From Candidatus Hermodarchaeota archaeon (GTDB taxonomy: Archaea > Asgardarchaeota > Lokiarchaeia > Sigyniarchaeales > SOKP01), in the NCBI GenBank assembly GCA_048885535.1, contig JBHLLO010000055.1, forward strand, positions 1 through 20,929: a stretch of DNA of 20,929 nt, in the 5' to 3' direction. The notes below the pieces were generated by a model that had not been told where the DNA came from, made no database searches, and saw nothing but the letters and a program-made list of their open reading frames with translations. A program made the position numbers and the translations under genes. Below, in pieces: positions 3,001 to 19,418 of the stretch (position 1 is its first letter; the number at the start of each line of letters is the position of its first letter).

Positions 3001-3179
3001 ATAGAGCAATCATTCGTGGGGAATGTTTTATCCAGCTGAGCCATTACTCCTCCAATTGAAGGGTTATTTTCAACAAGAAAGACTTTGATCCCAGAATTTG
3101 CTAAATCTAATGCTGCTTGACATCCTCCAATCCCTGCTCCTACAACTAATGCTGCTCCTACTTTACTTTCTTCACTCAT
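1..3179 (-). CDS. hdrA: HdrL-type heterodisulfide reductase subunit A-like polyferredoxin flavoprotein (HdrA + inserted GltD-like NAD(P)H module + second HdrA module); 3' end lies beyond the window edge
   Basis: Translated by hand from ATG 3179: MSEESKVGAALVVGAGIGGCQAALDLA (FAD-binding), LDKTFPTNDCSMC, CTGCGECIQQCP, CRDACP..CPHYCEDACNR, VAIIGSGPAG, GGGDVAMDAARSALRLG..IYRR, RCLNCASCCECFECVRAC, HCVGSRD..CSSMCC, PKDIPETV, then a new HdrA start RIGVFVCHCGINIGG..ATEKAKDLVRMSVAKA. The same frame holds at positions 3179, 1319 and 59. It is missing from the ORF track because it has no stop in the window. Confidence 0.95.
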   Translation of the reverse strand, partial: MSEESKVGAALVVGAGIGGCQAALDLANSGIKVFLVENNPSIGGVMAQLDKTFPTNDCSMCILAPKLVAVDRDPNIELITNADVLSVNGKAGNFNVKINKRTRYIHEDKCTGCGECIQQCPVQMPDEFNQGLSDRKAMYLQFPQAVPFKTLIDKRGVSPCRDACPAHINTQGYVQLISKGSYQEALDLIRERCPLPSVIGRICPHYCEDACNRKEVDEPVNICGLKRFVADHVRENFEEKITFLEDKKKEKVAIIGSGPAGLTVAYHLARRGYPVTIFEKESVAGGMLRIGIPDYRLPPEILEADIDHIKRYGVEIKTNACFGPDLTFSDLKKQGYKAIFISIGLHKSREMKIEGDDLKNVLYGVEFLRNLNLGVETPNIKDKFVGVVGGGDVAMDAARSALRLGAKKVIIIYRRSEQEMPASKEEIEMSKEEGIEFQFLTNPVKIYGDKAKKVAEIECIRMELGDLDASGRRRPVPIKNSEFKMKIDTVILAIGQEADFSLIQAACQDELEFDKSNLIQINEKTFETNIPGIFAGGEIVKGPGSAIEAIAIGNKAAIILEKFLKDEVISEEIETIPNYCEEEIIGMDDIENIERFSCQERKECNVCVPNERIMNFEEETMTFNEQEAIEEANRCLNCASCCECFECVRACLADAVDHTLTDEIVSINVGAIILALGSDEYIPEEGNVYGYGVYKNVITSIAFERILNASGPFKGEVVRPSDHTTPKKIAFLHCVGSRDKKIGHEYCSSMCCMYTTKEAVIAKEHSENVEPTIFSMDIRAHGKDFEKYIERAKNDYGIRYIRSRISSISEIPDSEDLKIKFETEEGKVVEEVFNLVVLSIGIQPNSTVSTLAKELNVALNEYGFCKTNTFNPSETSRPGIYVCGTFKEPKDIPETVIEASAAAGAVNVLLSDVRDTLVAQEMHFEERDISGEQTRIGVFVCHCGINIGGVVDVPEVVDYASTLPDVVYTERNLYTCSADTQTIIKEKIKEYNLNRVIVASCTPRTHEPLFQATIREAGLNKYLFDLANIRDQCSWVHMHSPEEATEKAKDLVRMSVAKA

Positions 3180-3255
3180 ATTACATCTAACAACAATTTC
3201 TACTCATAAAATTTTAAATTTTCAAAGGCAATTTAGTATACATTCCTTGTCATTC

Positions 3256-4470
3256 TTAAGCAAGGAAAAGTAATTCGCCAATAAAACTTGCTAAATCTAT
3301 TACTTTGATTTTATTTTTTAAATCTTGATGTTCAACATCTAAGGAAGGCTCATTGAGATAACAATCAAAATGTGTCCAACATTTAGGACAGGGTACAATT
3401 AAATACTCTGCTCCAGTTTCCACCGCTTCATTAATACGGTTCTGTCTAAAAACTCGTGTTGATTCGTTGCATCCTATAAAAGCTGAAACTCCACAACAGT
3501 TAGCATCGTCTTTAATATTTTCCATCTCAATTAATTGTACTCCAGGGATCTTTTTAAGTAAGTTTCTTGGAGCATCATAAAGTTTTCCTCCTAAACGCCC
3601 TAATCTACAAGCATCATGGTAGGTAACTTTTATTTTGGTTTCGTGTGGGAATCTAATATTTTCAAGGATATTTTCTTTGAGAAAAAATTCTGAGAAATGC
3701 AGAACTTCAAAGTTGTAATCTTTTATAACCTTTGGATAATCAAATTTCCACGTCCTATATCCTTCTGCGCATCCTATAATTATAGTTTTAACACCCGCAT
3801 CCCTATAAAGTTTAACATTATATTCTGCGAGTTTTTTAAATGTGTTTATATCTCCTTTACCCCACAAGATATCATGGCCGCAACACTTTTCATTTAAGAC
3901 AACTGGAATTATATTTGCTTCATTAAGTAAGCCAATTATAGTTTTTGGGATGCTAATATAATTCACATTTGATTTATAAAAGATATTTTCCATAAGGGGT
4001 AAGCATCCTGTAAAATATGCGATTTCTCCAGAATTAGCGGTTTTTAAAGCAGTATTTTTTAGAAAATCTAATTTGTTTGGACTAATTTTATCATCTGACA
4101 TTATTCTTGAAATAAGAGGAAATATTTCATCGTGAGTTTCGCATTGGATGATTTTATCTACTTGAGTACTATTGTTAAAGCCCAGTTTTCTTAATTCCAA
4201 AATTAGTTCAGGGAACTTCACTCCTGATCTCTCCTCTGTCATAGGGCAGTAATTAGTGCAAAGACCACAAGTCAGACAATCCCAAATATTATGATTCTTT
4301 ATGACCTCTTCTATAGGTGATGAGACTAAATCGACTATTAATTTTTGAGGATAAAAAACATCAATATGGGAGAGTGGACAAACATTAACACAACGATTAC
4401 AGTTATAGCAGAAATTTGCCATCGAATTAATCCTTTTTACAATATCCCCTGAAATCTTATTCACCCACAA
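3256..4470 (-). CDS. hdrD: HdrD-like Fe-S oxidoreductase (2x[4Fe-4S] + two CCG domains)
   Basis: CYNCNRCVNVCP and CLTCGLCTNYCP; CCG domains FTGC..EKCCG..GCAEG and YHDAC..NCCG..PCPKC. Co-oriented 76 bp upstream of hdrA/L. Start is uncertain (TTG 4470, GTG 4464 or a later ATG). Confidence 0.88.
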   Translation of the reverse strand: MWVNKISGDIVKRINSMANFCYNCNRCVNVCPLSHIDVFYPQKLIVDLVSSPIEEVIKNHNIWDCLTCGLCTNYCPMTEERSGVKFPELILELRKLGFNNSTQVDKIIQCETHDEIFPLISRIMSDDKISPNKLDFLKNTALKTANSGEIAYFTGCLPLMENIFYKSNVNYISIPKTIIGLLNEANIIPVVLNEKCCGHDILWGKGDINTFKKLAEYNVKLYRDAGVKTIIIGCAEGYRTWKFDYPKVIKDYNFEVLHFSEFFLKENILENIRFPHETKIKVTYHDACRLGRLGGKLYDAPRNLLKKIPGVQLIEMENIKDDANCCGVSAFIGCNESTRVFRQNRINEAVETGAEYLIVPCPKCWTHFDCYLNEPSLDVEHQDLKNKIKVIDLASFIGELLFLA

Positions 4471-4736: not shown

Positions 4737-6194
4737 ATGAAAGTTTGCTTCATCAATCCAGCTCCTCGGTCTTATATAATTGAGAGAGGTCATGAAACAA
4801 CTGGAGCATATCCACCATTAGGTATTTTATATATTTTGGCATATCTGAAAAAAGAGGGCTATGAAAGCATATTAATCGATCAACACGCTACAAAAATACC
4901 AACAATTGAAGTCCTTAAACAATTAAAAAAATATGACCCTGATATAGTTGGTTTCAACACATTAACGGATATCAATATGGGTTTACGAGCAACTTTCATT
5001 GCAAAGTTGGTTAAAGAATGGAATCCGAATATAAAGACAGTATTTGGAAATTGTCATGCTACTTTTAATCATGATAGAATATTGAAAAAATATCCATTTG
5101 TTGATATATGTGTCAGAGGAGAAGGAGAACTAACCTTTCTTGATTTAGTCAAGTCTTTTGAAAGTAATAGAAATCTTAGGGATGTATTTGGAATTACATA
5201 TCGCGAAAATGGTAAAATTAAAGTCAATCCAGAAAGATCTTTGATCAAAAATCTTGATGAGCTTCCATTTCCAGATAGGGAAGCATGTGGGGATGTAATT
5301 TATTGCCAAAACTATGGAGGAGTTAACGCTGATTATGGAAAATTTACGACAATTCAATCTTCGCGAGGTTGTACTTTTAATTGTACATTTTGTTGTCAGA
5401 GTAACTTGTCAAAAAGAATATGGAGAGCTAGATCAATTCCCCACATAATCAAAGAATTAGAATATCTCGAAAGTGAGGGATATACAAATCTTTATTGGGT
5501 CGATGATAATTTTACAAACAATCCTAAAAGAGCTATAAAATTATTTCGGGAAATGGAAAAGAATAATCTCGAGTTTAACTGGGTTTGCGATCAAAGGGTG
5601 GATCTTGTTAATGATCTATTACTCCGTGAAATGAAAAGAGCTGGATGCCGGACGATCTCATTTGGTATTGAAAGTGCAAATCAAAGAATACTTGATTGTT
5701 TAAATAAAAATATTACGCCTCAAATAGCCGTTAATGCCACGAAAAAGGCAAAAAAAAGTGGTATTGATTTTATCATGGGAACTTTTGTACTTGGATTACC
5801 AACAGAAACTTTAGTAGAGATTAAAAAAACACTTGACTTTTCTCTAAAACTAGAAATTGATTATCCACAATTTCATATCTTTGGAGCGATTCCAGGAACT
5901 AAAATCTGGGATGATTTAGTTAATAAAGGAAAAATTAATCCCGATAAATACTGGGAAAATGGAGTTAAGACTTTAGTACCTCCTCTTGATGAAGTTAAAA
6001 AGTTAATCAGAAAAGCTTATTTTAAATTTTTTATGAGACCAAAATATCTCCTAGAACAAATCCCTCGCACTCTTAAAAGTAAGCACAGATTAAAAATTTT
6101 GTATTCTAATCGACACATCCTTTCTAATAGCAGAGCAGTTAGGACATTTATCGATTTTTCAATTAATACTTGGACACATGGAGATTATCCCTAA
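4737..6194 (+). CDS. Cobalamin-binding domain radical SAM enzyme (class B-like)
   Basis: N-terminal B12-binding-type domain (YPPLGILYI..DIVGF..VFGNCHAT..RGEGE), SRGCTFNCTFC CxxxCxxC motif, DDNF, SFGIESANQRIL, F-x-x-G-x-P-x-E-T. Substrate unknown. Confidence 0.92.
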   Translation: MKVCFINPAPRSYIIERGHETTGAYPPLGILYILAYLKKEGYESILIDQHATKIPTIEVLKQLKKYDPDIVGFNTLTDINMGLRATFIAKLVKEWNPNIKTVFGNCHATFNHDRILKKYPFVDICVRGEGELTFLDLVKSFESNRNLRDVFGITYRENGKIKVNPERSLIKNLDELPFPDREACGDVIYCQNYGGVNADYGKFTTIQSSRGCTFNCTFCCQSNLSKRIWRARSIPHIIKELEYLESEGYTNLYWVDDNFTNNPKRAIKLFREMEKNNLEFNWVCDQRVDLVNDLLLREMKRAGCRTISFGIESANQRILDCLNKNITPQIAVNATKKAKKSGIDFIMGTFVLGLPTETLVEIKKTLDFSLKLEIDYPQFHIFGAIPGTKIWDDLVNKGKINPDKYWENGVKTLVPPLDEVKKLIRKAYFKFFMRPKYLLEQIPRTLKSKHRLKILYSNRHILSNSRAVRTFIDFSINTWTHGDYP

Positions 6195-6249
6195 TTCAAG
6201 AGAATTTATAAATTTTTTATGCCTAATTATTAGCAAGTAAACTAAAAAA

Positions 6250-7923
6250 TTGGGCGTTTTTAAATTGAAACGAGATTTCAAAACAAAAATATTAATCTTA
6301 TTTGTATTAAGTTGCTTATGTATCTCATCAGTATTCCTTATGAAAACTATTGATATTGAGTACATTTTTAACTCAAAAAACTCAAAACAAGACATATCTA
6401 AAATCAAAAACCCACAGATATCACAGACATCTGACAGAATTCATATTAATAATAATTGGACAGAAACAAAGATTGCGGGTATATGTACAGGGAATGGCAC
6501 CTATTCTGAACCTTACATTATAAAAGATATGGTTATTGATGCAGACTTTTTAGGAAATGGCATATTAATAGAAAATTCTAAAGAATACTTCATAGTTAAG
6601 AATTGTTCTATTTATAATTCAGGAAATGGAGGGTGGGGTGCGGGAATTAAATTTAAGAATGTGAATAATTCTCAAATAATTGAAAATTATTGTTTTAATA
6701 ATTCTTTGGGAATAATTCTTAAACAAAGTCATAACAATTCTATTATCAGTAATACAGTAAATAGAATTAGCATGATAGGAATAGTTTTGAATCAAAGCTC
6801 CTATAACCATATTTTGGCTAACATAGTAGGGAATAATAGTGGAGTGACAATGGGGGCAGGAATTATTTTGTTAGGGACTAATAATTGTAGAGTTTTTGGA
6901 AATGTAATACAGAATAACAATTTAGGAATCAGTTTCTCAGATAGTTATAATAATGATATTTCAGGAAACCAAGTAAATTTTAATTCATATGGGATAGCTT
7001 CATCTTTTAGCAATAATAACTCCATTTCAGGGAATTATGTGAATAATAATCTATTTGAGGGAATTCATCTTGAACAAAGTGATTATAACAACATTTCAAG
7101 AAATGCGATGAATAATAACTCATTATATGGAATCTATCTAAGTGTCAGCGATGAAAACATAATTTCAAAGAACATTATGAACAATACTGAACGTGGGATA
7201 TATATATGGTTTGGATTTTTGAATATTATTTCAGAAAACATAGTAAATAATAATGTCGATGGAGTGTATTTATATTATACTAATTATAATAATATTTCAA
7301 AAAATATCATAAGAAATAACAGTGAAAATGGAGTAATCTTAAACAATTGTGATTATAACATGGTTTTGGAAAATGTAATCAGTGAAAATACCGAATTAGG
7401 AATAGGGTTAGATCTTAATAGTATTTACAATATAATTGCTGGTAATATTATAACACAAAATACAGATGGTATATATATGCACTATAGTGACCACATTGAA
7501 ATCCATAATAACACCATATCTTATAATTTGAATGGGATTAATATTGTGTATTGCAGTGATAATAATATCTCAGAAAATAAAATTTATGGAAATGAATATT
7601 CTGGGTTATATTTAAATAGAACTAGTTTTAACCACATCATAGGAAACGTCATAAATAATAACAATGAATATGGAATAATTTTAATAGAGAGCAACTTCAA
7701 CACAATCTCGGGAAACACCATAATAGGTAATAGAGTATGTATCACAGAGCAAAATTGTCATGATAATATATTTAGTGATAATACAGGGTGTGATTATGGT
7801 GAAGGAGGAGATGGTGGAATTCCTGTTGAAGCTATTCTCTTTACTCTTGGAGGGGTAACTCTGTTAATCTTGGTAATTATTCAATTATTTAGCAAGAGAA
7901 GAAAGAAATTGAAAAATGAATAA
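6250..7923 (+). CDS. Secreted/membrane-anchored parallel beta-helix (NosD/CASH/PbH1-repeat) protein
   Basis: N-terminal hydrophobic segment (ILILFVLSCLCISSVFL), IHINNNW..GNGTYSEPYII cap, many approx. 22-aa GIxLxxSxxNxIxxNxxxNN repeats, C-terminal TM helix followed by a basic tail (SKRRKK). Start is uncertain (TTG). Confidence 0.88.
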   Translation: MGVFKLKRDFKTKILILFVLSCLCISSVFLMKTIDIEYIFNSKNSKQDISKIKNPQISQTSDRIHINNNWTETKIAGICTGNGTYSEPYIIKDMVIDADFLGNGILIENSKEYFIVKNCSIYNSGNGGWGAGIKFKNVNNSQIIENYCFNNSLGIILKQSHNNSIISNTVNRISMIGIVLNQSSYNHILANIVGNNSGVTMGAGIILLGTNNCRVFGNVIQNNNLGISFSDSYNNDISGNQVNFNSYGIASSFSNNNSISGNYVNNNLFEGIHLEQSDYNNISRNAMNNNSLYGIYLSVSDENIISKNIMNNTERGIYIWFGFLNIISENIVNNNVDGVYLYYTNYNNISKNIIRNNSENGVILNNCDYNMVLENVISENTELGIGLDLNSIYNIIAGNIITQNTDGIYMHYSDHIEIHNNTISYNLNGINIVYCSDNNISENKIYGNEYSGLYLNRTSFNHIIGNVINNNNEYGIILIESNFNTISGNTIIGNRVCITEQNCHDNIFSDNTGCDYGEGGDGGIPVEAILFTLGGVTLLILVIIQLFSKRRKKLKNE

Positions 7924-8673: not shown

Positions 8674-10764
8674 TCATTTCCATTTGGCATTTAAGTATTC
8701 AAGCATCTTATCTACATCATGAGTTGGAGATTTACACATTTTGTTAATGCAAACATATGTAGTAGCTTTTCCTTCCAAATTGTCGAAATATTGAACAAAA
8801 TTTGAAAGTTCATCGATATCCGGATTTTCATGTTCCATTTTCCTAAGCAGTATTACCTTATTTGGTAAGTATTCATTCTCAATTGCCTTTAGCATCTTCA
8901 ATGTATCATCAGATTTAGTTTCTCCAGCAATAACTATCGAATATGTTGGTCCAACAATAAAATCTGCCGCGACCATGAATTGTGTATAAGCTATTGGTGA
9001 TGATTCTAATCGTTCTGTAAAAACTCTACTTAATATATCGGCTTTTTGTTCTAAGTTAGAGTCTCCTGTGATGTAGCTTAGACGTAATAAGTTTAACATT
9101 GAAACTGAATTTCCTGAGGGAATTGCTCCATCATAGATTTCCTTTCGACGAGTTAAGAGTTCTTCGTTGAAATCAGAAGTGAAGTAAAAACCTCCAATCT
9201 CATCATCCCAAAAATGATTAATTTGGAAATTATTCAACACTATTGCGTTTTGTAAATAATCAATATCAAACGTAGCTTCAAATAGTTCAATTAAACCCCA
9301 GATGAAAAAAGCATAATCTGTTAAATAACCTCCAATTTGAGCTTCTTCATCTTTATAGCGATGGAGCAGCTGTCCATTCTTTTCTCTTAGATTATTTAAT
9401 ATAAATTGAGCTGATTTCATGGCAATATCTAAATAAAAGTTATTATTTAGAATTTTAGCACCTTTAGCTAAAGCTGCAATCATTAAGCCATTCCAATCTG
9501 TTAGTATTTTATCATCTTTTGAAGGATGAACCCTTTTTTCCCGATGGTTAAATAATTTTTGTCGTATTGATTCAATTTTTAAATAGTTACTTTCTTGTTC
9601 AAGTGGATCTATGTTATTTAAATGAGGTATGTTTTTACCAGTCTTTTTCCCTGTTGATTCTTCAAAAAAATTACCGGAGTCATTTATATTATATAGATTT
9701 ATAAAATAATTAGCATCATCTTCTCCGAGGGTTGTTTTTAATTCAGATTCTTTCCACAGATAAAATTTGCCCTCTTCGCCCTCACTATCAGCATCTTCGG
9801 CGGAATAAAAACCTCCCTCTGGTGAAAGCATATCACGTGTTACATAAGAGAAAATTTCTTCAGCAACCTTTCTATAAATTTCTTTTTTTGTCGCTGAATA
9901 TGTTTCAATGTAAGCAATAGCCGTTAAAGCTTGGTCATATAACATCTTCTCAAAATGAGGCACAAGCCAATAGGTATCTGTAGAATAACGGTGAATGCCA
10001 AATCCTATATGATCATAAATTCCTCCTAATCTCATCTGAATTAAAGTCTTTTCAACCATTTCTAATGCCTTTTCTTCTCCAGTGCGTTTCCAATAACGTA
10101 ATAAGAATAATAAGTTATGTGGAGTAGGAAATTTAGGTTTTTCACTAAATCCTCCATAATTTGGATCGAAAAGTGTTTGAAGTTGATCATAAGTCTTTTT
10201 CAATATTTTCTGGTTAAACTTATCACCGGGAGCTTCTTGAGTTATATTTTGGAGAGTGGAAGTAATTTTTTCAGCAGATTCTTTTAATTCATCATTTTTA
10301 TTTTCCCAAAGGGTTTTGACATTCTTAATTAGATCTATAAGACCAATTCTACCAAATTTAGTCTCTCGTGGAAAATATGTACCTGCAAAAAAGGGTTTTT
10401 TATCAGGAGTAAGGAAAATAGTTAGAGGCCAACCACCTGAACCAGTCATCATTTGACAAACAGTCATATAAATATGATCTATATCAGGGCGCTCTTCTCT
10501 GTCGACTTTTATTGAGACGAATACATCATTCATTAAATTAGCCACTTCCTCACTTTCGAAGCTTTCATGGGCCATAACATGGCACCAATGGCAAGTGGAA
10601 TACCCTATCGATAAAAATATTGGTTTATTCTCTCTTTTAGCTTTTTCAAATGCTTCCTCGGACCAAGGATACCAATCAACAGGATTATGTACATGTTGCA
10701 ATAAATATGGGCTTTTTTCAAATTTTAAATGATTTAATCTTTCATTCTCGATATTTGATTCTAT
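8674..10764 (-). CDS. yyaL: YyaL/SSP411 (SPATA20-like) thioredoxin-domain + alpha/alpha-barrel protein
   Basis: [93 protein letters not shown]. The ORF track starts at TTG 10701, but the conserved N-terminus continues upstream; I extended the start to ATA 10764 (uncertain). Confidence 0.92.
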
Positions 10765-10776
10765 TTTTGAACACCT

Positions 10777-11346
10777 TTATTCTTTTAATTTACTTCCAAA
10801 TTCATTTAAAAATACAAATTGATCTAAAGGTTTTCTTGGAGGTCTTTGTTTTTCACCTAATTTCATGGATTCAGATAAAACAGGATTTATTTCAGTTGAA
10901 TGCCTACCAATAATAATTAAAGTTATCAATAAATTATCATCAGGGATATTAAGCACTCCTTTTGCTTGATCTTCATTAAATCCGGCAATAGGATGGGCTA
11001 TCAAACCTAACTCTGTAGCCCTGAGTATAAGTAAAGAAACTGCCAATCCATTATCGAATAGATAATATAACCTATCTTTAATTAAACAATCATCTTCTTT
11101 TTTGCTGAAAATTGCAATAATCAAAGAAGCTTTTTCTACCCATTTATTACCTGGGGTGAGTGTCATAAACAATTCTTTTAATTTATTTTTGTCTCGCACG
11201 AAAATTAAGTTCCATGGTTGCTTATTCATACATGAGGGAGCCATTTGAACAACCTTAGCGAAATCTATTAACATTTCGTCCGAGATTTCAACTGAGTCAA
11301 GAGATCTATAAGATCTTCTTTTTTTTATTGCTTCTGTAACATCCAT
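10777..11346 (-). CDS. Nitroreductase family flavoprotein (copy 2)
   Basis: AIKKRRSYR, APSCMNKQPW, D-x-G-L-A..LRATELGLIAHPIAGF, IIIGR, PRKPL. Confidence 0.93.
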   Translation of the reverse strand: MDVTEAIKKRRSYRSLDSVEISDEMLIDFAKVVQMAPSCMNKQPWNLIFVRDKNKLKELFMTLTPGNKWVEKASLIIAIFSKKEDDCLIKDRLYYLFDNGLAVSLLILRATELGLIAHPIAGFNEDQAKGVLNIPDDNLLITLIIIGRHSTEINPVLSESMKLGEKQRPPRKPLDQFVFLNEFGSKLKE

Positions 11347-11534
11347 TTTGGTATTGATTATTTCGAATTTGCTTTTTAATTTTATCTCTAAAAATTATAA
11401 GAAATATTCAAAATATCAATATCCTGCTAATACTAAATCAAAATAATGGGATTATAACTAATAATTATAAAATAAATGGAGTAAAATAATAATAATTTAT
11501 AGAAACACAAGGATCTTGAATTTCTGAAATACGT

Positions 11535-12095
11535 TTAAAGAGAGTATTTATTAATATAAGAGAATTCTTTAAATTTTAATCGAACTGGTTTGTTAAATTC
11601 AGTAGCTCTCATTAATTCTGTCAAGTTTTTATCAATTTTAGGTGACTTTCTACCTATAATAATTAAAGCAATTACTCTCATGACATTAGGAATACCCAAT
11701 ATCTTCTTAACTTTTTCTTCCTCAAATCCGGCTATAGGATGAGCTACAAGACCAAGTTCAGTAGCTCGTAGAATTAAAAATGCTGTAGCTAGTCCAGTAT
11801 CAAATAAGTAATAAAGGCGTTCTTTTATGATACAATCATATTCAACATTACTAAACACAACAATTATCATGGAAGCATTTACCACCCATTTTTCATTAGG
11901 GGGGGTTATTGTAGGCATTAATTTTTCGAGTTGGGTTTTACTATAAACAAAAATAAATCTCCAAGGTTGGGAGTTTTTACAAGAAGGTGCTAAACTCGCG
12001 CAATCAGCTAAATCCTTTATAAGTTCATCATTAATATCAATAGGATTCAAAGATCTATAAGACCTTCTCTTATTAATAGCCTCTTTAACATCCAT
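11535..12095 (-). CDS. Nitroreductase family flavoprotein (copy 1)
   Basis: AINKRRSYR, APSCKNSQPWRF, DTGLA..LRATELGLVAHPIAGF; clear paralogue of 10777..11346. Confidence 0.93.
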   Translation of the reverse strand: MDVKEAINKRRSYRSLNPIDINDELIKDLADCASLAPSCKNSQPWRFIFVYSKTQLEKLMPTITPPNEKWVVNASMIIVVFSNVEYDCIIKERLYYLFDTGLATAFLILRATELGLVAHPIAGFEEEKVKKILGIPNVMRVIALIIIGRKSPKIDKNLTELMRATEFNKPVRLKFKEFSYINKYSL

Positions 12096-12260
12096 TATAA
12101 AACCCTTTTCCAGTTAATTTAAATTTTCTTTTCTAATTTAATAGAAAATAATGAACTATTTAATTTGAAGATATAGAAAAAACATCTCTGGATAAAATTC
12201 CTAGAACGTAATAGAAATTATCCTTTTATTGATTTTAAAAATTTAATAATAAATATTAGG

Positions 12261-12268
12261 AAAAAAAA
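12261..12268 (-). terminator. Oligo(T) archaeal terminator candidate for bcp
   Basis: T8 on the minus strand immediately after the bcp stop codon. Confidence 0.45.
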
Positions 12269-12769
12269 TTAAGCCTTATTTTTTAAGCTTTTAAGTTCAT
12301 CTTTAACTTCCTCTGCATGTCCTTTAACGCTAACCTTAGGCCAAATATAAGCGATCTTTCCATCTAAGTCTATTAAAAACGTGCTTCTAATAACTCCTAA
12401 ATATGTCTTTCCCTTAAATTTTTTTTGACCCCATGCCCCATATTTGTTCATCACTTCATGATTTTCATCGCTTAATAGGGTGACTTTCAAGTTTTTCTTT
12501 TCAATGAATTTAGCGTGGGATTCTGGACTGTCTGGGCTAATACCTATGACTTCTGCATCAAGTTCTTGGAATTCGGGTAAAATATTCGTAAATCCAATCG
12601 CTTCAGTTGTACAACCAGGGGTATTGTCAGCAGGATAAAAGTACACAATATTGTATTTTCCACTAAAATCTTTTAAGCATACTTGCTGTTTATCCTTATC
12701 TGGAAGGCAAAATTCAGGGGCTTTATCTCCTATATTCAGGTTCGCTTTCTTTTTTGTCATAAATATCAC
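12269..12769 (-). CDS. bcp: Peroxiredoxin, BCP/PrxQ family
   Basis: GDKAPEFCL, YFYPADNTPGCTTEA (PxxxTxxC), GISPDSPESH, RSTFLID, GHAEEV. Confidence 0.95.
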   Translation of the reverse strand: MIFMTKKKANLNIGDKAPEFCLPDKDKQQVCLKDFSGKYNIVYFYPADNTPGCTTEAIGFTNILPEFQELDAEVIGISPDSPESHAKFIEKKNLKVTLLSDENHEVMNKYGAWGQKKFKGKTYLGVIRSTFLIDLDGKIAYIWPKVSVKGHAEEVKDELKSLKNKA

Positions 12770-12930: not shown

Positions 12931-13527
12931 ATGGAAAGTAAAAGTTTGGGTCTATTCCTAAGTGTTTTAGGAGGAATTTTTATAGGAATTGCTTTAATTA
13001 CAATTTGGAGCATGTTTTTAACTTGGGAGCTATGGAAAGGTGGATATATAATCTTAGCAATTCCATTTTTAGCGTTTGGAGTCTCTACGATGTTTTTTGG
13101 AATTTATTTAATATTTGGCTCTAAATTTGGTTCAAAAATTAAAGGATTGATTATGATAATTGATGGAATAATCCCAATTATAGGAACGATAATTATTTGG
13201 CTAGATAGTAGGTTTTTACCCCATAATCTGACACAGTTTATTGTGTTTTTTCCTTTACTATTAGTTGGCATTTTTCTTATCATATATGGTATTTTTTTAA
13301 TATTAGCAGATACATTTATTCAGAATAAAAGAACTAGGAAAACAACAAATCAAGTCCTAGGTATAGTATCTGCTTTAGTAGGTATAACAAATATAGTATT
13401 TTTTGTAATTCTATTGATATCCTTTATTGATCATCCATTACTATTTTCTGTAGGTTGGCTAGCTCTTGGAGCTATATTGATAATATTTGGAATTTACTTA
13501 GTTATTAAGAAGATTGAAAAAAAATAA
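12931..13527 (+). CDS. Integral membrane protein, about 6 TM helices, unknown function
   Basis: 198-aa ORF made almost entirely of Gly-containing hydrophobic helices. Confidence 0.8.
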   Translation: MESKSLGLFLSVLGGIFIGIALITIWSMFLTWELWKGGYIILAIPFLAFGVSTMFFGIYLIFGSKFGSKIKGLIMIIDGIIPIIGTIIIWLDSRFLPHNLTQFIVFFPLLLVGIFLIIYGIFLILADTFIQNKRTRKTTNQVLGIVSALVGITNIVFFVILLISFIDHPLLFSVGWLALGAILIIFGIYLVIKKIEKK

Positions 13528-13539
13528 CATAAAATATTT

Positions 13540-15039
13540 TTAAGGGTCATTCCTAAAAGGATGTCTTGCATTTTCCATATTTGCAATTCCATCCTCCACA
13601 GTTGGGACACCTTCCATTGCTTTTCTAATAGCATTTCTTGTAGCTTTATAATTGTTAATGAATACTCTTTTTCTGGCACTAGCACTAGGGTGAACAAAAA
13701 CGTTGACAATTATTACAATTTCATCTGCTAATTCTTTAGGAAGTATACCATCATCAACACATTGCATAACTGCCTTAGCGATCGCTGCTTGAGCAGGACC
13801 ATAAGTTAGACTTGCATGACGTAGGGAAGTTGGTCTTACTGTGGGGATCATTATTGTGGATGGTTTTATCTGCATATTAGGCTCCAATATAACTTGTAAT
13901 CCTTCGCGACCTTCTTCAGGATTAGTCAAAGCTTGAGCATATGCATTTCCAACGGGTCCATCTTTTTTACCTATCAATATATCAATGTGAGCTACTTCAA
14001 CACGATCACCAACAAGTGATTCTCCAACTTTTAATCCAAAATCAGTGATTTTATGTGGTGTTATTCCAACAGCATAGAAGCGATTTGTTAGTGGCTTATC
14101 TCCAAATTGAAACTCTATTTCAGTTTTTTCAATTAATCCTAATTTTTCTAATTCAACTCTCAATTCATCTTTTATTTCATAGGAGAGAGCATCACCCAAA
14201 ACAAGCGGTTGCCGGGTTTTGCCTACTGGAATTTTCATCATATTTAAACAAGATTTAACTCCAAGTGCTCCTGAATTAATTAATAATCTCGCTAATTTTT
14301 GAACTCTCTTTTGAAGAGCTTGGGCTTCTTGCAGTCGGTTATTTTTAACGTGATCATAAATTTCTAGCCAAAATTTGGGAATTACATTTGCAGATCCTAA
14401 AATACATCCAGCAGCACCTCCAGCTAAAGCACCTAACACATTTTCATCCCATCCAATCATAACTGAAATCTTATCACTTACCTTCTCTAAAATTGCTGAA
14501 AAATATTTATAATCTCCACTCGAATCCTTAATGGCAACAATATTTTCAATATCTACTAAATCTTCCACTACAGTCCAAGGTAATTCTACTCCTGTACATG
14601 CTGGTATGTTGTATAAAACTATTGGTATATCTGTTTTCTCAGCAATTGTGAAATAATGGTCATATAGACCTTTACTTTTCGGTTTTAAATAATAAGGTGT
14701 AACTATAAGGACTGCATCAGCTCCAATGTCAGTTGCTTTATTAGTTGCATCAATTACTAATTTTGTACCAGTTTCTCCTGTTCCAGCGATGACCGGTATA
14801 CGTCCATTAACCTCATCTACAACAATTTCAATTATTTCTAAACGTTCTTCAAATGTCATATTAACAAACTCGCCAGTAGTACCGACTGGAACAAGTCCAT
14901 TTACTCCTTGTTCGATAAGATAATTTACTAAATTTCTTAATTGCTCTTCATTTATCGATTCATCTTTATTAAACGGAGTTACGAGAGCAACCATAACTCC
15001 TTCTGGTCTAAAATCAAACTTACTCATACTTTTTATCAT
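13540..15039 (-). CDS. DapA/NanA-family class I aldolase (aa approx. 10-303) fused to a C-terminal formaldehyde-activating enzyme (Fae) domain (aa approx. 336-499)
   Basis: ALVTPF, GTTGE, TPYY, LYNIP (Y143), AIKDSSG (Schiff-base K171). Fae: VGESLVG..EVAHIDILIGKKDGPVG, KPSTIMIP, GPAQAAIAKAV, VFVHP, NYKATRNAIRKAM, HPF. Confidence 0.92.
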   Translation of the reverse strand: MIKSMSKFDFRPEGVMVALVTPFNKDESINEEQLRNLVNYLIEQGVNGLVPVGTTGEFVNMTFEERLEIIEIVVDEVNGRIPVIAGTGETGTKLVIDATNKATDIGADAVLIVTPYYLKPKSKGLYDHYFTIAEKTDIPIVLYNIPACTGVELPWTVVEDLVDIENIVAIKDSSGDYKYFSAILEKVSDKISVMIGWDENVLGALAGGAAGCILGSANVIPKFWLEIYDHVKNNRLQEAQALQKRVQKLARLLINSGALGVKSCLNMMKIPVGKTRQPLVLGDALSYEIKDELRVELEKLGLIEKTEIEFQFGDKPLTNRFYAVGITPHKITDFGLKVGESLVGDRVEVAHIDILIGKKDGPVGNAYAQALTNPEEGREGLQVILEPNMQIKPSTIMIPTVRPTSLRHASLTYGPAQAAIAKAVMQCVDDGILPKELADEIVIIVNVFVHPSASARKRVFINNYKATRNAIRKAMEGVPTVEDGIANMENARHPFRNDP

Positions 15040-15072
15040 ACTAAATTGTTAATTTTAACCCAATAAAATTAT

Positions 15073-15639
15073 TCATTTACTTTTAGCTTTCGAAGTAGCT
15101 TCAAAATTTTTTGAACCGGGTAAATACTTAATAACCTTTGCTGGGGTTCCACCAGCTAGTGCAAAATCAGGTATATCCTTTGTAACAACAGACCCAGCAG
15201 CAATTACGGACCCTTCACCTATTGTTACTCCCCCCAAAACAATACTATGTAAACCTAACCAACATCCTTTTTTAATTCTAACTGGTGAAGGGGGATAACC
15301 TAGATCTGACACATACATTCCAGGTCTTAAAAGATGAAGGTCTCTACCATGGGCCATAATCATCGAATAAGCTGCTATTTCAACATTGTCTTCAAGGAAA
15401 ATTAAAAAAGGATACTCATTATCAATATAGACATCTTCACCAATCCATACATTTTTACCCATAACAACACCCTTTATTCTATGCAGTCTTGCTCTTGTAA
15501 AACCACCTGGGATATGCCTTGCTAAAACATTGATAAATCTAACCATAAATCGCCCAAATATGGTTTTCTTTCTTTTTTTCTTAATTTGTTCTAATTTCTC
15601 TCGAAGTTTTAATTCTTGTTCACGAGAAAATTTACTCAT
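15073..15639 (-). CDS. Hexapeptide-repeat (left-handed beta-helix) O-acyltransferase
   Basis: GVVMGKNVWIG, IFLEDNVEI, AH, PVRIKKGCWLG, GVTIGEGSVIAAGSVVTKDIP, GGTPAKVIK. Confidence 0.93.
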   Translation of the reverse strand: MSKFSREQELKLREKLEQIKKKRKKTIFGRFMVRFINVLARHIPGGFTRARLHRIKGVVMGKNVWIGEDVYIDNEYPFLIFLEDNVEIAAYSMIMAHGRDLHLLRPGMYVSDLGYPPSPVRIKKGCWLGLHSIVLGGVTIGEGSVIAAGSVVTKDIPDFALAGGTPAKVIKYLPGSKNFEATSKAKSK

Positions 15640-15715
15640 ATTTTCTTTAATGTTCCTTTTTTCTTAAATTAAATTCATATTACTAATAAGTGGTATTTGA
15701 AGTTTGATAACCTTT

Positions 15716-16555
15716 TTACTTTCTTAATCTTCTAATATAATCTATATAGGACCACGTATCGATATCACCAGTAATGCACACAAAATTTTCTTTTTGATCT
15801 TTCCTATAGGTTTCTACAGCTTTTTTAAATTCGATTAAAATTGAGTTCGCATCTTTATTTACAAATTTACAAATAGCATCCAAAGCAACGATAAACTTTT
15901 TCTGACCCATTCGTATTGGGTGCATATCGAAAATTATTATTGAGCCTTTAGTTTTACGAATAGATTTTATAAAATGCTTAGTGATGACTCTAGGATTCCA
16001 AATACCTAACAAATCTATTAAAAGATCATCACTAGGTCTTGCCATTACAAATTCGGGAACTACTTGATTAATTGGTTTCCAAGGCGGATCCTCTTGAAAT
16101 TCTGAACTGGAATGTGAGAACCCTATTTCTTTAAGAACTTCATAAAATTTAGATTTTCCCAAATTGCTAATAGAATTCATGGCATAAGGGGCGCGAAAAC
16201 ACCAAGATTCGAGATTACTTCTTTCAAAGATTTCTTTTGATCTCCTTATTTCCTGAATGGCTTGATTAACTGTTAATTCTTGGAGATTAAAATGCTTATA
16301 TCCATGCGGGAGAGCTATATTTTTTGAGTTTCTAAATATAGCCACTCTATCAGGATGTCCTTCAAGAATGTATGCTGCTACAAAATAAGTCATATGGGAA
16401 TTATATTTTTCAAGCACAGAATTGATATTGTTAATTAAATATTCCATCTTAGTTAATTGAAAAAAGAAGTTTAAAACAGTTTTTTTTAATAAATAAAAAA
16501 TGTTCCTTCTGTAGACTTTCAATAATTGCTTGAAATATTGGGGTATTATCGGCAA
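15716..16555 (-). CDS. Polysaccharide deacetylase (CE4/NodB-like), atypical motif order
   Basis: TYFV, HGYKH (HxxxH metal motif), FRAPY, DMHP; a TGDID motif at the C-terminus. TTG start preceded by AGGTGG (16566-16561). Confidence 0.8.
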   Translation of the reverse strand: MPIIPQYFKQLLKVYRRNIFYLLKKTVLNFFFQLTKMEYLINNINSVLEKYNSHMTYFVAAYILEGHPDRVAIFRNSKNIALPHGYKHFNLQELTVNQAIQEIRRSKEIFERSNLESWCFRAPYAMNSISNLGKSKFYEVLKEIGFSHSSSEFQEDPPWKPINQVVPEFVMARPSDDLLIDLLGIWNPRVITKHFIKSIRKTKGSIIIFDMHPIRMGQKKFIVALDAICKFVNKDANSILIEFKKAVETYRKDQKENFVCITGDIDTWSYIDYIRRLRK

Positions 16556-16575
16556 TTATCCCACCTATTAATTAA

Positions 16576-17862
16576 CTATTTAGGATAATGTAAATTTTTG
16601 GCAGCAATAATAGAAAGGCCATTTTCAGTTAATGCTTTAGCGGTATGATTTACTGCACGGTATCTATCAAGATGATTTATACGGAGAAAGTCCCATAATC
16701 CTGCGTTTTTCAAATCTTCTTTTGGCATGAAATATTCAAGTATGTCTGTAGGATGTTCTCGCTTTTCTTCTACTTCAACATCCCCACCTTCATGCTTAGC
16801 ACTCACATTTTTAACTATTTTTACTAATTCTAGGAGTTCTTTCCTTCGATCGTAAGGCTGTCTGACAATACTCTTCCAAGTTTCCGTTATATGATGTTCA
16901 AGTCTAACTACATCTTCAAAATCAAAATTTTTCCTAATATAAGCAGCTAATTCAATAGTTTCGTTATTAACAGAATTAGCAAGGTTAAACCCTATTAATG
17001 GACTTGTCCCATCTTCCCGTGCGAATAATTTAGCTGTTAATAACGTCCAAAGACAAGAATAAGGATTATCATTTCCCATATACACACTTATTTTAAATTC
17101 ATTATTAATTCCCAATTTGTAAATAAAATACCCAAGAAGTACAGTTCCAGGATTTACGTTAAGAACTTGTTTAATTCCATAATTGGTATAATAATAAAGA
17201 AATTCGTCAATCCATTTTAACGCAAAGTCATTTGGTTGGCCAACACCTCCAAAATAACCAGTAATTGTTTCTGGTCCTCCTAAATGGACATTAACAGGTA
17301 AACCATCAGGACCAGGAGCAGTCCCTTTTGTATCCAATGTTTCAACCCAGCTAGAGCCTATAATTTGCATTGCAGCAGTCATTGCGATTAGATCTCCATC
17401 TTTTTCTTGTTCTTTCATATTCCGAACACGTATAATTCTTCCTGGAACTAGCTGCTGAGTTTCTATAGCATCTCTAGCAATATCAATTAGAAAAGGGAAA
17501 TATTGACAGGCAGATAACTCCAAGGTTACCGCAAAATCTTCATTAAATTTTAACTCTAAAGCTTTTTCTCCTAAAACTTTTTCACGATATTCACCTATAC
17601 TAATGAAAGCTTCGTTATCTCTTTGATTGGTAAGCCATTCGATATCCTTAACATAATCAGAATTCACTTTTTCTAATCGCTGGATTAAAATATCGATTTT
17701 AGATGCCTCTTGTGCTTTTCTATTAATCTCCTTAATACCACCATATTTTTCCAATAATTCAAAAAGATCGTTGATAAGCGTATTATCTTCATCCAAAATG
17801 AATTCATTCACCGCTTTTAATGCGCTATCAGGAATTTTTAGCTTTTTTCTTAATTCTTTCAT
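16576..17862 (-). CDS. Uncharacterised soluble protein, enzyme-like
   Basis: 428-aa ORF rich in Gly/Pro/His/acidic motifs (ETLDTKG, NVHLGGPETITGYFGGVGQPN, KISVYMGNDNPY, RLEHHITET, SAKHEGG). I cannot assign a family. Confidence 0.85.
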   Translation of the reverse strand: MKELRKKLKIPDSALKAVNEFILDEDNTLINDLFELLEKYGGIKEINRKAQEASKIDILIQRLEKVNSDYVKDIEWLTNQRDNEAFISIGEYREKVLGEKALELKFNEDFAVTLELSACQYFPFLIDIARDAIETQQLVPGRIIRVRNMKEQEKDGDLIAMTAAMQIIGSSWVETLDTKGTAPGPDGLPVNVHLGGPETITGYFGGVGQPNDFALKWIDEFLYYYTNYGIKQVLNVNPGTVLLGYFIYKLGINNEFKISVYMGNDNPYSCLWTLLTAKLFAREDGTSPLIGFNLANSVNNETIELAAYIRKNFDFEDVVRLEHHITETWKSIVRQPYDRRKELLELVKIVKNVSAKHEGGDVEVEEKREHPTDILEYFMPKEDLKNAGLWDFLRINHLDRYRAVNHTAKALTENGLSIIAAKNLHYPK

Positions 17863-17893
17863 CTCTCATTTTTACCTTTATTATTTTCGTAAA

Positions 17894-17971
17894 TTTTGAA
17901 ATATTCTACCCATGCCATTCCCATGAATCTAATATTTCAAAAAGAAACCATAAATGTAATACTAGATTCAT
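17894..17971 (-). promoter_or_regulatory. Candidate structured 5' leader with two mutually exclusive hairpins
   Basis: Helix A: 17971-17958 pairs with 17936-17923 (14 bp, one G-U). Helix B: 17942-17931 with 17905-17894 (12 bp perfect), a 2x2 AG/AG loop, then 17928-17922 with 17914-17908 (7 bp, two G-U). The wobble pairs form only on the minus-strand RNA. Confidence 0.5.
17906..17971 (-). CDS. Candidate leader peptide MNLVLHLWFLFEILDSWEWHG
   Basis: ATG 17971 to TAG 17906, 21 codons with three Trp, overlapping both hairpins. No RBS (would be leaderless or near-leaderless). Confidence 0.3.
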   Translation of the reverse strand: MNLVLHLWFLFEILDSWEWHG

Positions 17972-18065
17972 TTTATTTTAAATTTATTTGAAATACAGCA
18001 AAATCTTTAATTAGAATTTCAAATATCATAAACTATATCAAGAAATTATAAGTGGCAACAATAAA

Positions 18066-19418
18066 ATGTTTAAATATAAAGTATCAATTTTAGGAACTGG
18101 TTTTATTGGGTTATGTTCTGCCGCATGCTTTGCAAATAAAGATATAAAAGTATTAGCATCAACTCATAATGAAAAAAAAGCTAAAATTATAAATGAAGGA
18201 AAAGCACCCTTTTTTGAAGCTGGCTTACAAGAAATAATGGATAACATCAAGAAAAATAAGCCTGAAATGTTCCAATGTTTAACTGATCCAATAAAAGCAG
18301 TACTTGAAACAGATATCTCGATGATAACCCAAGGAACTCCAATGAGGGAGGATAAAAGTATTAATTTAAGTTTTATTGAAAGCACAGCAAAGGAGATTGG
18401 AGAAGCTTTAAAACAGAAAGACAAATATCATTTGGTAGTTGTAAGATCAACTGTTGTGCCTAGAACAACTCGTAATTTAGTTGGAAAAATTATTACTGAA
18501 ATTTCTAATAAAGAAGCCGGTAAAGATTTTGGTCTATGTATGCAACCTGAATTTTTAGCAGAAGGTCGTTCAATTGAAGATACATTAAATCCAGATAGAA
18601 TTGTAATAGGCGAATTTGATGTAAAAAGTGGAGCGATGTTACAAGAATTTTATGAATATTTTTATGGCGATCACCTTCAAAATTGTCCTATATTAAGAAT
18701 GAATATTGAAAGTGCTGAGTTAGTTAAATATGGTAATAATTGCTTATTAGCAACAAAAATAAGCTATGCAAATGAATTTGCTAATTTCGCTGAATTAGTT
18801 CCTAATATTGACATAAATTTGGTAATGAAGGGAGTAGGTCTTGATTATCGCATCAATTCTAGGTTCTTACGAGCAGGGGCGGGATTTGGGGGTTCCTGTT
18901 TTCACAAGGATGTTAATGCGATAAAAGCATGGTCAAAATCAAAAGGTTATACTTCAAGACTTTTGGAAGCTGTTTTAGATATTAATGACGACCAAGCAAT
19001 ACATATAGTCGATTTAGCTCAAGAGTTATTAGGAAGCCTAGAAGGAAAGAAAATAACTCTGTTGGGTCTTGCATTTAAACCTGGAACTGATGACATGAGA
19101 CAAGCCGCTAGCATAAGAGTCGTAAATGAGTTAATTAAGAGAAAGGTTAAGGAGATAATAGGATATGATCCAAAAGCTAATGACACTGCTAAAATTGAAT
19201 TAGGTGAAAAAGTCAAATATTATGCCCCCTCAATTGAAGAAGCGCTAAAAGATTCAGACTGTGCACTTTTAATAACTGAATGGGATGAGTTTGAAAAACT
19301 AACTCCTGATGATTTTAAAAAATACATGAAAGTACCAAATTTAGTAGATGCAAGAAGGCTATATGATTTTGAAATATTTAATGAAGCCATACCATTTAGA
19401 GCAATAGGTCGAAAATGA
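18066..19418 (+). CDS. ugd: UDP-glucose/GDP-mannose 6-dehydrogenase family protein
   Basis: GTGFIG Rossmann motif, RSTVVP, PEFLAEG, AELVKY..N, GFGGSCFHKD (catalytic Cys), GLAFKPGTDDMR, DARRLY. Confidence 0.95.
   Translation: MFKYKVSILGTGFIGLCSAACFANKDIKVLASTHNEKKAKIINEGKAPFFEAGLQEIMDNIKKNKPEMFQCLTDPIKAVLETDISMITQGTPMREDKSINLSFIESTAKEIGEALKQKDKYHLVVVRSTVVPRTTRNLVGKIITEISNKEAGKDFGLCMQPEFLAEGRSIEDTLNPDRIVIGEFDVKSGAMLQEFYEYFYGDHLQNCPILRMNIESAELVKYGNNCLLATKISYANEFANFAELVPNIDINLVMKGVGLDYRINSRFLRAGAGFGGSCFHKDVNAIKAWSKSKGYTSRLLEAVLDINDDQAIHIVDLAQELLGSLEGKKITLLGLAFKPGTDDMRQAASIRVVNELIKRKVKEIIGYDPKANDTAKIELGEKVKYYAPSIEEALKDSDCALLITEWDEFEKLTPDDFKKYMKVPNLVDARRLYDFEIFNEAIPFRAIGRK

Follow-up and report, generated by a model that had tools for sequence, protein, structure and literature searches.

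The stretch of DNA analysed here (the window) comprises 20,929 nucleotides of contig JBHLLO010000055.1 of a Candidatus Hermodarchaeota archaeon. On its minus strand, at positions 13540–15039, lies a single open reading frame (ORF) of 499 amino acids (P0001) that encodes a class I aldolase of the dihydrodipicolinate synthase (DHDPS) family fused to a formaldehyde-activating enzyme (Fae). The frame starts with ATG and has no internal stops. Further upstream on the same strand, at 16576–17862, lies a gene for a protein of 428 amino acids, which we call U428. In the fusion, Pfam DHDPS (PF00701) covers residues 13–297 (window 14149–15003, minus strand; profile positions 3–286 of 289; E = 4.9e-80; 268.8 bits against a gathering threshold of 22.1) and Pfam Fae (PF08714) covers residues 338–495 (13555–14028, minus strand; profile positions 1–158 of 159; E = 6e-55; 186 bits against 27). 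With the NCBIfam model one_C_fae (TIGR03126), the score was 184.4 bits, where the cut-off is 118.05. Each domain is complete and exceeds its curated cut-offs. An initial annotation of this DNA had described an uninterrupted frame with a full DapA/NanA barrel and a full Fae domain, and the frame and the profile coverage bear this out. It had put the linker at about 30 amino acids, whereas the domain borders at 297 and 338 give a linker of about 40 (residues 298–337).

The motifs of both enzyme families were located in the fusion. In the barrel, these are KDSSG at residues 171–175, with the Schiff-base lysine Lys171, YNIPACTG at 143–150, with Tyr143, and GTTGE at 53–57. Solved DHDPS chains have identical residues at the positions of Lys171, Tyr143 and GTTGE, and all three are kept in 16 of 16 aligned fusions. 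The Fae domain carries AHID at 350–353, EPNMQIKP at 386–393, GPAQ at 414–417 and ARHPF at 491–495; AHID with His351, and GPAQ, had already been noticed in the initial annotation. We take His351 to be the catalytic histidine of Fae. The domain aligned end to end with the solved Methylobacterium Fae 1y5y_A (residues 13–173 of a 176-residue piece with residues 6–166 of the chain; E = 5e-32), and AHID fell on the identical four letters of that chain. Among the 16 aligned fusions, the AHxD motif was kept in the 11 long or single-copy forms and lost in five short upstream paralogues (see below).

This two-domain architecture is widespread. In a collection of 5.8 billion proteins, the best 120 clusters were all two-domain proteins of 476–505 amino acids with 82–100% identity, from many independent assemblies, and about 12 more distant fusion clusters (35–49% identity) were present in the 50%-identity library. 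Species-representative genomes contained 72 Asgard loci with the fusion. Most of these were whole, and some were interrupted by Ns or by the end of the contig; for example, the match at locus L075 is short because of 100 consecutive N upstream, and not because the gene is broken. In a set of 400 Asgard genomes, within which families and genera are denoted here by f and g codes, 190 had a match to the fusion at E ≤ 1e-90. We used this threshold as a proxy for the two-domain form, and among the matches listed all cover both domains or end at contig ends. By family, the fusion was found in 80 of 134 genomes of f1, 10 of 12 of f18, 12 of 19 of f19, all three of f9, and 78 of 89 of three further families taken jointly. 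At the same threshold it was not found in families f13 (0/31), f15 (0/12) and f16 (0/22). An assembly chimera, which the initial annotation had named as a way for its reading to fail, is ruled out by the 190 of 400 genomes and by the 120 best clusters, all of them two-domain, and the 72 loci agree.

Wherever these 120 clusters carry a name, it is ‘4-hydroxy-tetrahydrodipicolinate synthase’, save for one ‘hypothetical protein’. The names are matched by the dapA equivalog model TIGR00674, which gave 255 bits on the fusion against a cut-off of 206.15, and 213–255 bits on fused barrels overall. The fusion and DapA belong to the same superfamily and share the catalytic lysine, the tyrosine and the Thr-Thr motif, and the model score lies just above the cut-off. 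The fusion might accordingly be taken for a true DapA with an accessory domain. We regard this as very improbable, because other observations point away from it. The genome has a standalone dapA (300 amino acids) on another contig, which scores better on the same model (335.2 bits) and is directly followed by dapB; a candidate diaminopimelate-decarboxylase-like ORF, identified by eye, lies near this pair. In contrast, the neighbours of the fusion are U428 and unrelated genes, with no dapB or lysA context.

The residue that binds the substrate of DapA is also replaced. Arg138 of Escherichia coli DapA has been described as binding the carboxylate of aspartate semialdehyde, with Asn at this place in human 4-hydroxy-2-oxoglutarate aldolase (HOGA) and Leu in N-acetylneuraminate (sialic-acid) lyase (NAL). 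In an alignment with solved DapA chains and the genome's own DapA, this position is occupied in the fusion by Cys148. Among 27 fusion-length proteins the residue was Cys in 15, Val in seven, Leu in four and Ala in one, and Arg in none, whereas 44 of 89 standalone relatives had Arg. Of the 108 barrels in a maximum-likelihood tree, the 26 fused ones all fell into one clade (SH-aLRT 98), apart from the Arg-bearing clade to which the genome's DapA belongs; the fused-barrel clade also held two short rows, each sister to a single fusion. The tree came from a quick search, and 59 of 167 sequences had been dropped since they were shorter than 270, longer than 560 or 340–419 amino acids long, or lacked Tyr-Asn-x-Pro. 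Because of the separate dapA–dapB pair, the missing semialdehyde-binding Arg and the separate clade, the sequence evidence indicates that the fusion is not the housekeeping DapA of this genome, and the fallback of the initial annotation, an ordinary DHDPS, fails on the same grounds. Hundreds of database entries named ‘4-hydroxy-tetrahydrodipicolinate synthase’ are therefore probably misnamed. Five fusion-less genomes were searched for a standalone orthologue of the fused barrel, and the search returned a single DapA-like gene, 30% identical. A third, weak DHDPS-family match (74.5 bits) was seen inside an open frame of 705 amino acids (G000 contig C8:38403–39158; L003).

A second difference from DapA recalls sialic-acid lyase. 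All 16 aligned fusions have Gly-x-Asp-Glu (GWDE at 196–199 here), compared with Gly-Asp-Asp in DapA, and Asp-Glu in place of DapA's Asp-Ala. Asp198 and Glu199 correspond to the Asp-Glu pair of NAL; the Ser of its Asp-Glu-Ser set could not be placed from sequence alone. In the sialic-acid lyase, Asp191 and Glu192 are described as binding sugar hydroxyls. The fusion thus shares with NAL and the HOGA-type 2-keto-3-deoxy-acid aldolases the pyruvate Schiff base and a residue other than Arg at the Arg138 place, and with NAL the Asp-Glu pair. It scored below the cut-offs of the NAL models (NF003164, 194.4 bits against 281; TIGR00683, 171.9 against 382), although the fused barrels had higher NAL scores (156–199 bits) than the genome's own DapA (133 bits). 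To our knowledge, no member of this aldolase group carries a Fae domain.

The main new finding, and the strongest new clue to function, is a conserved partner gene, which was absent from the initial annotation. U428 had no match in Pfam, NCBIfam or PDB sequences, and a search with it returned at least 8000 significant matches. In 67 of 72 genome loci it is the gene immediately before the fusion, encoded on the same strand and separated from it by −41 to 28 nucleotides. Four of the 72 loci could not be evaluated since the upstream DNA is missing, which leaves 68, and in one locus (L007) U428 is separated from the fusion by the same two-gene insertion as in the window. The insertion (window 15073–16555, minus strand; L007:8550–9983; L006:337–888) was confined to this genome and one or two closely related ones. 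It consists of a polysaccharide-deacetylase-like gene (279 amino acids; 15716–16555, minus strand; Pfam PF01522; in 1 of 72 related loci) and a gene for a hexapeptide-repeat acyltransferase (188 amino acids; 15073–15639, minus strand; Pfam Hexapep; in 2 of 72). Because U428 and the fusion adjoin in 67 of 72 loci, this pair is a lineage-specific local insertion. On the other side of U428, and divergent from it, lies a UDP-glucose/GDP-mannose dehydrogenase-family gene assigned by Pfam (18066–19418, plus strand), which is present in 53 of 72 loci.

The presence of U428 mirrors that of the fusion among the genera of family f1. U428 and the fusion, respectively, were found in 36 and 34 of 41 genomes of genus g1 and in 36 and 38 of 54 of g12. 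Both were found in 3 of 5 genomes of g2 and in 3 of 7 of g13, and neither was found in g5 (0/6), g6 (0/4), g7 (0/2) or g11 (0/10). U428 was also considered as a decayed copy of an upstream fusion paralogue, and this was rejected when a profile–profile comparison found nothing (E = 0.72). A complex prediction for the fusion and U428, run without controls, gave a score of 0.00, and a look for RNA data covering window 13400–18000 found none; both outcomes are neutral towards every reading discussed here.

A second family, U315 (315 amino acids, no Pfam match), lies upstream of the fusion in families f19, f32, f10 and f26, and two genes away from it in f9. Because all six fusion-bearing genomes that were checked for both had exactly one of U428 or U315, we treat the two as positional analogues; a weak profile match between them (E = 0.0067, probability 5.7%, 222 collinear columns) leaves room for their being, possibly, distant homologues. 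Relatives of U315 formed more than 4000 clusters at 71–81% identity, with source labels, where given, of Asgard, Bathyarchaeia, Aigarchaeota and Nitrososphaeria. Scanning metagenomes with the U315 alignment gave 80 loci, 77 of them with a callable U315 ORF. Where both flanks reached 2.5 kb or more (29 loci), a two-domain fusion was found within 2 kb in 27, and a fusion-like ORF at 3.4 and 5.8 kb in the other two. The 48 loci with shorter flanks had a two-domain fusion in 13 cases, a fusion-like ORF cut by the contig end in 14, and neither in 21. The other neighbours in these metagenome loci were housekeeping genes, such as those for a tRNA methyltransferase, a GTPase and an RNase-like protein of the metallo-beta-lactamase/RMMBL family. 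Bacterial labels (Nanopelagicaceae, Anaerolineales and Anaerolineae) also stand on close copies of U315 and of the Asgard fusion (P0075, P0086, P0394 and P0469). These labels are probably binning errors, because the fusion copies are 84–85% identical to Asgard proteins.

The predicted model of U315 (pLDDT 88, pTM 0.86) is an eight-stranded TIM barrel. Foldseek placed class II metal aldolases, of the fructose/tagatose-bisphosphate type, first (E = 2e-9 to 1e-7, TM-scores 0.45–0.5), followed by sugar epimerases and other barrels, with hexulose-phosphate synthase (Hps) and ketopantoate hydroxymethyltransferase lower in the list. A full-library structural search gave a flat list at Z 12–14.7, which included CutC, RuBisCO-like proteins, class II aldolases and the solved U32 member 5d88. 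Since these are unrelated TIM barrels at similar scores, U315 was not assigned to the aldolases. The alignment with 5d88 (Z 13.4, root-mean-square deviation 3.1 over 189 residues, 18% identity) was tied with those of many unrelated barrels, and a language-model feature search that placed U315 beside U32 clusters (0.98; 243/256 features; 29/30 matches) is a lead only. The likeness of U315 to the Peptidase U32 family (the O2-independent hydroxylases UbiU/UbiV, RlhA and TrhP) lies in the TIM barrel, the feature search and this alignment. Pfam U32 (PF01136) was not significant (best E = 0.16, 11.7 bits against 22.4, in one of three U315 members; none in U428). The U32 oxidases are described as needing an iron-sulfur motif, CX6CX15CX3C (PMC11574389), whereas no Cys was invariant among 30 U315 or 13 U428 sequences and the four-Cys motif was absent. 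In U315, three His and several acidic residues are invariant.

Other searches with the two families were less informative. A PDB sequence search with the U315 profile returned nothing meaningful. In the U428 model (pLDDT 66, pTM 0.72), helices at the N-terminus precede an alpha/beta barrel whose matches to TIM barrels are only weak; for this mediocre model, Foldseek gave no match at E ≤ 0.001, and an Atlas search for U428 returned only unnamed or unrelated clusters. Because of the barrel models, the unspecific fold matches and the absence of the U32 motif, we read the partner as a predicted TIM-barrel enzyme of unassigned family.

Together with the Asp-Glu pair, these matches could be accommodated by a complex with three active sites. 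The fused barrel would take a larger, hydroxylated aldehyde together with pyruvate, and U428 or U315, as a metal-dependent aldolase or an enzyme that transfers hydroxymethyl groups, would act on this same skeleton and release or use the formaldehyde seen by the Fae domain. The sugar-recognition pair of sialic-acid lyase in every aligned fusion, the NAL scores above that of the genome's DapA, the metal aldolases at the head of the Foldseek list with Hps and ketopantoate hydroxymethyltransferase further down, and the invariant His and acidic residues of U315 without an invariant Cys would all suit such a complex. We nevertheless consider it unlikely, as the TM-scores of U315 are only 0.45–0.5, the full-library list is flat, and the gene neighbourhood yields no candidate substrate.

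The fusion-bearing genome encodes Mch, Ftr and Mtd, enzymes of the tetrahydromethanopterin (H4MPT) pathway that the initial annotation had expected in fusion-bearing genomes. Mer was not confirmed in this genome, where two luciferase-family matches, at 129 and 123 bits, fell short of the cut-off of 348.7. No Fae match was present in families f13 (0/31), f15 (0/12) and f16 (0/22), and Mch was found in none of five fusion-less genomes checked (88–99% complete). Because Mch, Ftr and Mtd are present here and Fae and Mch were not found in the fusion-less lineages checked, the fusion is, as far as tested, confined to lineages with H4MPT enzymes. The genome also has an ORF of 427 amino acids with a Fae part followed by about 260 residues, a putative Fae-Hps. 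The Fae-Hps model NF009833 matched the fusion only in its Fae half (residues 336–495; 146.6 bits against a cut-off of 274).

Single-copy fusions, including that of the window, keep all Fae motifs and score 167–210 bits against the cut-off of 118. In some lineages, a form of about 470 amino acids is followed in tandem by a form of about 495, with U428 elsewhere in the genome (L082:8003–10891, L083:8004–10908 and L092–L096; for example, L094:6606–9487). In the long downstream paralogue, the His motif and the ARHPF tail at the C-terminus are retained and the EPN and GPAQ stretches are lost, whereas the short upstream paralogue keeps these two stretches and has lost the His motif and the tail. Their Fae scores are low, 117.4 bits for the long form (cut-off 118.05) and 91–126 for the short form. 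Fae forms a ring, and H4MPT binds between neighbouring subunits. The solved Fae structures have five chains per entry (2 entries with 10 chains, and 9 entries with 45 chains for an engineered fusion). The complementary motif loss, taken with a binding site between subunits, suggests that the tandem paralogues form hetero-oligomers with composite Fae sites. In one lineage, the next gene after the row of U315, short fusion and long fusion encodes triosephosphate isomerase (L082:10963–11649).

The same tandem pairs, in which each Fae domain misses motifs and scores below or near the cut-off, could also be explained by a Fae-like domain with another role, such as an oligomerisation scaffold, a regulator that binds a pterin, or an enzyme that joins H4MPT to some other aldehyde; in that case, the barrel would be a 2-keto-3-deoxy-acid aldolase of the ordinary kind. 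Five chains per solved entry would also fit a scaffold ring. This explanation seems improbable to us, because the single-copy forms keep all Fae motifs and score far above the cut-off, and because the losses in the tandem pairs are complementary rather than random, as expected for composite sites between unlike subunits. Moreover, no fusion was found in the families without Fae, and all five fusion-less genomes tested were without Mch.

A clue to the chemistry came from lineages without the fusion. U428 was also present in families f13 (23/31), f16 (20/22), f3 (9/14) and f12 (1/1), and the fusion was found there in only one of the 14 f3 genomes. In six of six loci from f13 and f16, a class I/II aminotransferase gene directly follows U428. 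It is followed in five of them (L098 and L100–L103; for example, L100:8037–14596) by ORFs of 344–369 and about 596 amino acids, and in the sixth (L099) by a gene for a DUF362 iron-sulfur protein. The gene of 344–369 amino acids encodes homoserine dehydrogenase (421 and 415 bits against an equivalog cut-off of 373 in the two loci tested), and the longer one encodes an aldehyde:ferredoxin oxidoreductase in the loci tested. In one f16 locus, a gene for a PatB-family C-S lyase follows this row, and oligopeptide-type ABC transporter genes lie upstream in f16 loci. The aminotransferase, homoserine dehydrogenase and oxidoreductase would carry 4-hydroxy-2-oxobutanoate to and from homoserine, aspartate semialdehyde and aspartate. 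In the H4MPT-bearing lineages the same slot is held by the fusion, which could split 4-hydroxy-2-oxobutanoate to pyruvate and a one-carbon unit on H4MPT, or build it from these two. This parallel is the best, though indirect, support for a chemistry that joins pyruvate and formaldehyde.

We tentatively favour, at slightly under even chances, an enzyme that interconverts 4-hydroxy-2-oxobutanoate with pyruvate and formaldehyde and exchanges the formaldehyde with H4MPT. The fusion would be bifunctional. Its N-terminal domain would be a class I pyruvate aldolase that works through a Schiff base, a member of the DHDPS/NAL superfamily diverged from DapA so that aspartate semialdehyde is no longer bound, and its C-terminal domain would be an intact formaldehyde-activating enzyme. 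The barrel would reversibly cleave a 4-hydroxy-2-oxo acid, in the simplest case 4-hydroxy-2-oxobutanoate, to pyruvate and formaldehyde, and the Fae domain would pass the formaldehyde to the H4MPT pool or take it from there, as Fae-Hps does for hexulose phosphate. Synthesis or consumption of the 4-hydroxy-2-oxo acid would fall to the TIM-barrel partner, which is U428 here and U315 in other lineages. In this scheme we infer the substrate, the direction, the channelling and the reaction of the partner.

Several observations weigh against this enzyme. The Gly-x-Asp-Glu of all 16 aligned fusions, the pair that recognizes sugar hydroxyls in NAL, suggests an aldehyde larger than formaldehyde. In lineages with tandem paralogues, neither Fae domain is complete by itself, and the fold match of the modelled partner is unspecific. 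No aminotransferase or homoserine dehydrogenase gene stands beside the fusion in the loci examined, and the other metagenome neighbours are housekeeping genes. The reaction of pyruvate with formaldehyde to 4-hydroxy-2-oxobutanoate had already been proposed in the initial annotation. It has gained indirect support from the C4 enzyme set of the fusion-less loci, whereas its aldehyde is put in question by the Asp-Glu pair.

Ketopantoate is likewise a 4-hydroxy-2-oxo acid, the adduct of 2-oxoisovalerate and formaldehyde, and by this chemical analogy the fusion might be imagined as an H4MPT-dependent ketopantoate hydroxymethyltransferase that replaces PanB. We rejected this candidate, which hardly seems conceivable, because PanB co-occurs with the fusion. 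PanB (PF02548) is encoded in this genome (E = 2.9e-111) and occurs in most of the fusion-bearing genera (g1, 32/36; g12, 40/44; f31, 76/86), and the two therefore do not have a complementary distribution.

The proposed enzyme may be compared with two known systems. Fae-Hps and the fusion both combine Fae with a barrel of the aldolase type, by which an aldehyde is made or used. The order of the domains is reversed, however, with Fae at the C-terminus of the fusion; where Fae-Hps has an Hps barrel, the fusion has a class I Schiff-base pyruvate aldolase; and the fusion has a conserved partner gene. The other system is the engineered homoserine cycle, in which E. coli RhmA is described as condensing pyruvate and formaldehyde to 4-hydroxy-2-oxobutanoate, which is then transaminated to homoserine (PMC8879981). 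There the aldol reaction is presented as a promiscuous activity in an engineered pathway, and the acid is called non-native (PMC8879981). RhmA is a class II metal aldolase acting promiscuously, whereas the fusion is a proposed dedicated class I enzyme linked to H4MPT.

In agreement with the initial annotation, which knew of no characterised protein of this architecture, our full-text literature searches found no description of a fusion of Fae with dihydrodipicolinate synthase or DapA (supplementary gene tables were outside their scope). Passages on Asgard Fae in one paper mention Fae-Hps only, which was noted there in a Lokiarchaeota metagenome-assembled genome (PMC7495880). For Fae in Loki-, Bathy- and Thorarchaeota, the titles and abstract openings listed contained no such fusion.

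The window holds further genes. Downstream of the fusion, at 8674–12769 (minus strand), lie genes for a DUF255 thioredoxin-like protein, two nitroreductase-family proteins and a peroxiredoxin, a set with the look of redox or oxidative-stress functions that occurs in 47–52 of 72 loci. At 3–4470 (minus strand) lie a large flavin/iron-sulfur oxidoreductase (Pyr_redox_2 and 4Fe-4S domains), which continues beyond the window, and after it a CCG-domain iron-sulfur protein; the two resemble a heterodisulfide-reductase-like pair. A B12-binding radical SAM protein and then a NosD/beta-helix protein are encoded at 4737–7923 (plus strand); they occur together in 2 of 72 related loci.

Beyond the single enzyme, a broader proposal is possible but rather doubtful: Asgard archaea and, by the labels on U315, also Bathyarchaeia and Aigarchaeota might have a natural, dedicated route between the H4MPT branch of the Wood-Ljungdahl pathway and C4 amino-acid metabolism, built from aldolase–Fae fusions and Cys-less TIM barrels, with lineages lacking H4MPT using homoserine dehydrogenase and a tungsten-type oxidoreductase. 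In one direction, methylene-H4MPT and pyruvate would give 4-hydroxy-2-oxobutanoate and then homoserine, a natural version of what the engineered homoserine cycle does. In reverse, C4 acids derived from homoserine or methionine would give pyruvate and a one-carbon (C1) unit bound to H4MPT.

The results have consequences for annotation and for further work on these proteins. Naming the fusion DapA can distort lysine-pathway reconstructions for Asgard genomes. U428 and U315, two large and very conserved families without a Pfam model, gain a functional context that can be tested, and the complementary decay of Fae in the tandem paralogues predicts a hetero-oligomer with composite sites. If the proposed reaction is true, it would be the second natural archaeal coupling of an aldol reaction to the H4MPT C1 pool besides Fae-Hps, and the first with pyruvate. 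Metabolic engineers would have a dedicated enzyme to replace a borrowed, promiscuous aldolase. The fusion would then be a point of entry or exit between the methyl branch of the Wood-Ljungdahl pathway and amino-acid metabolism, in archaea that dominate anoxic sediments and are the closest to eukaryotes.

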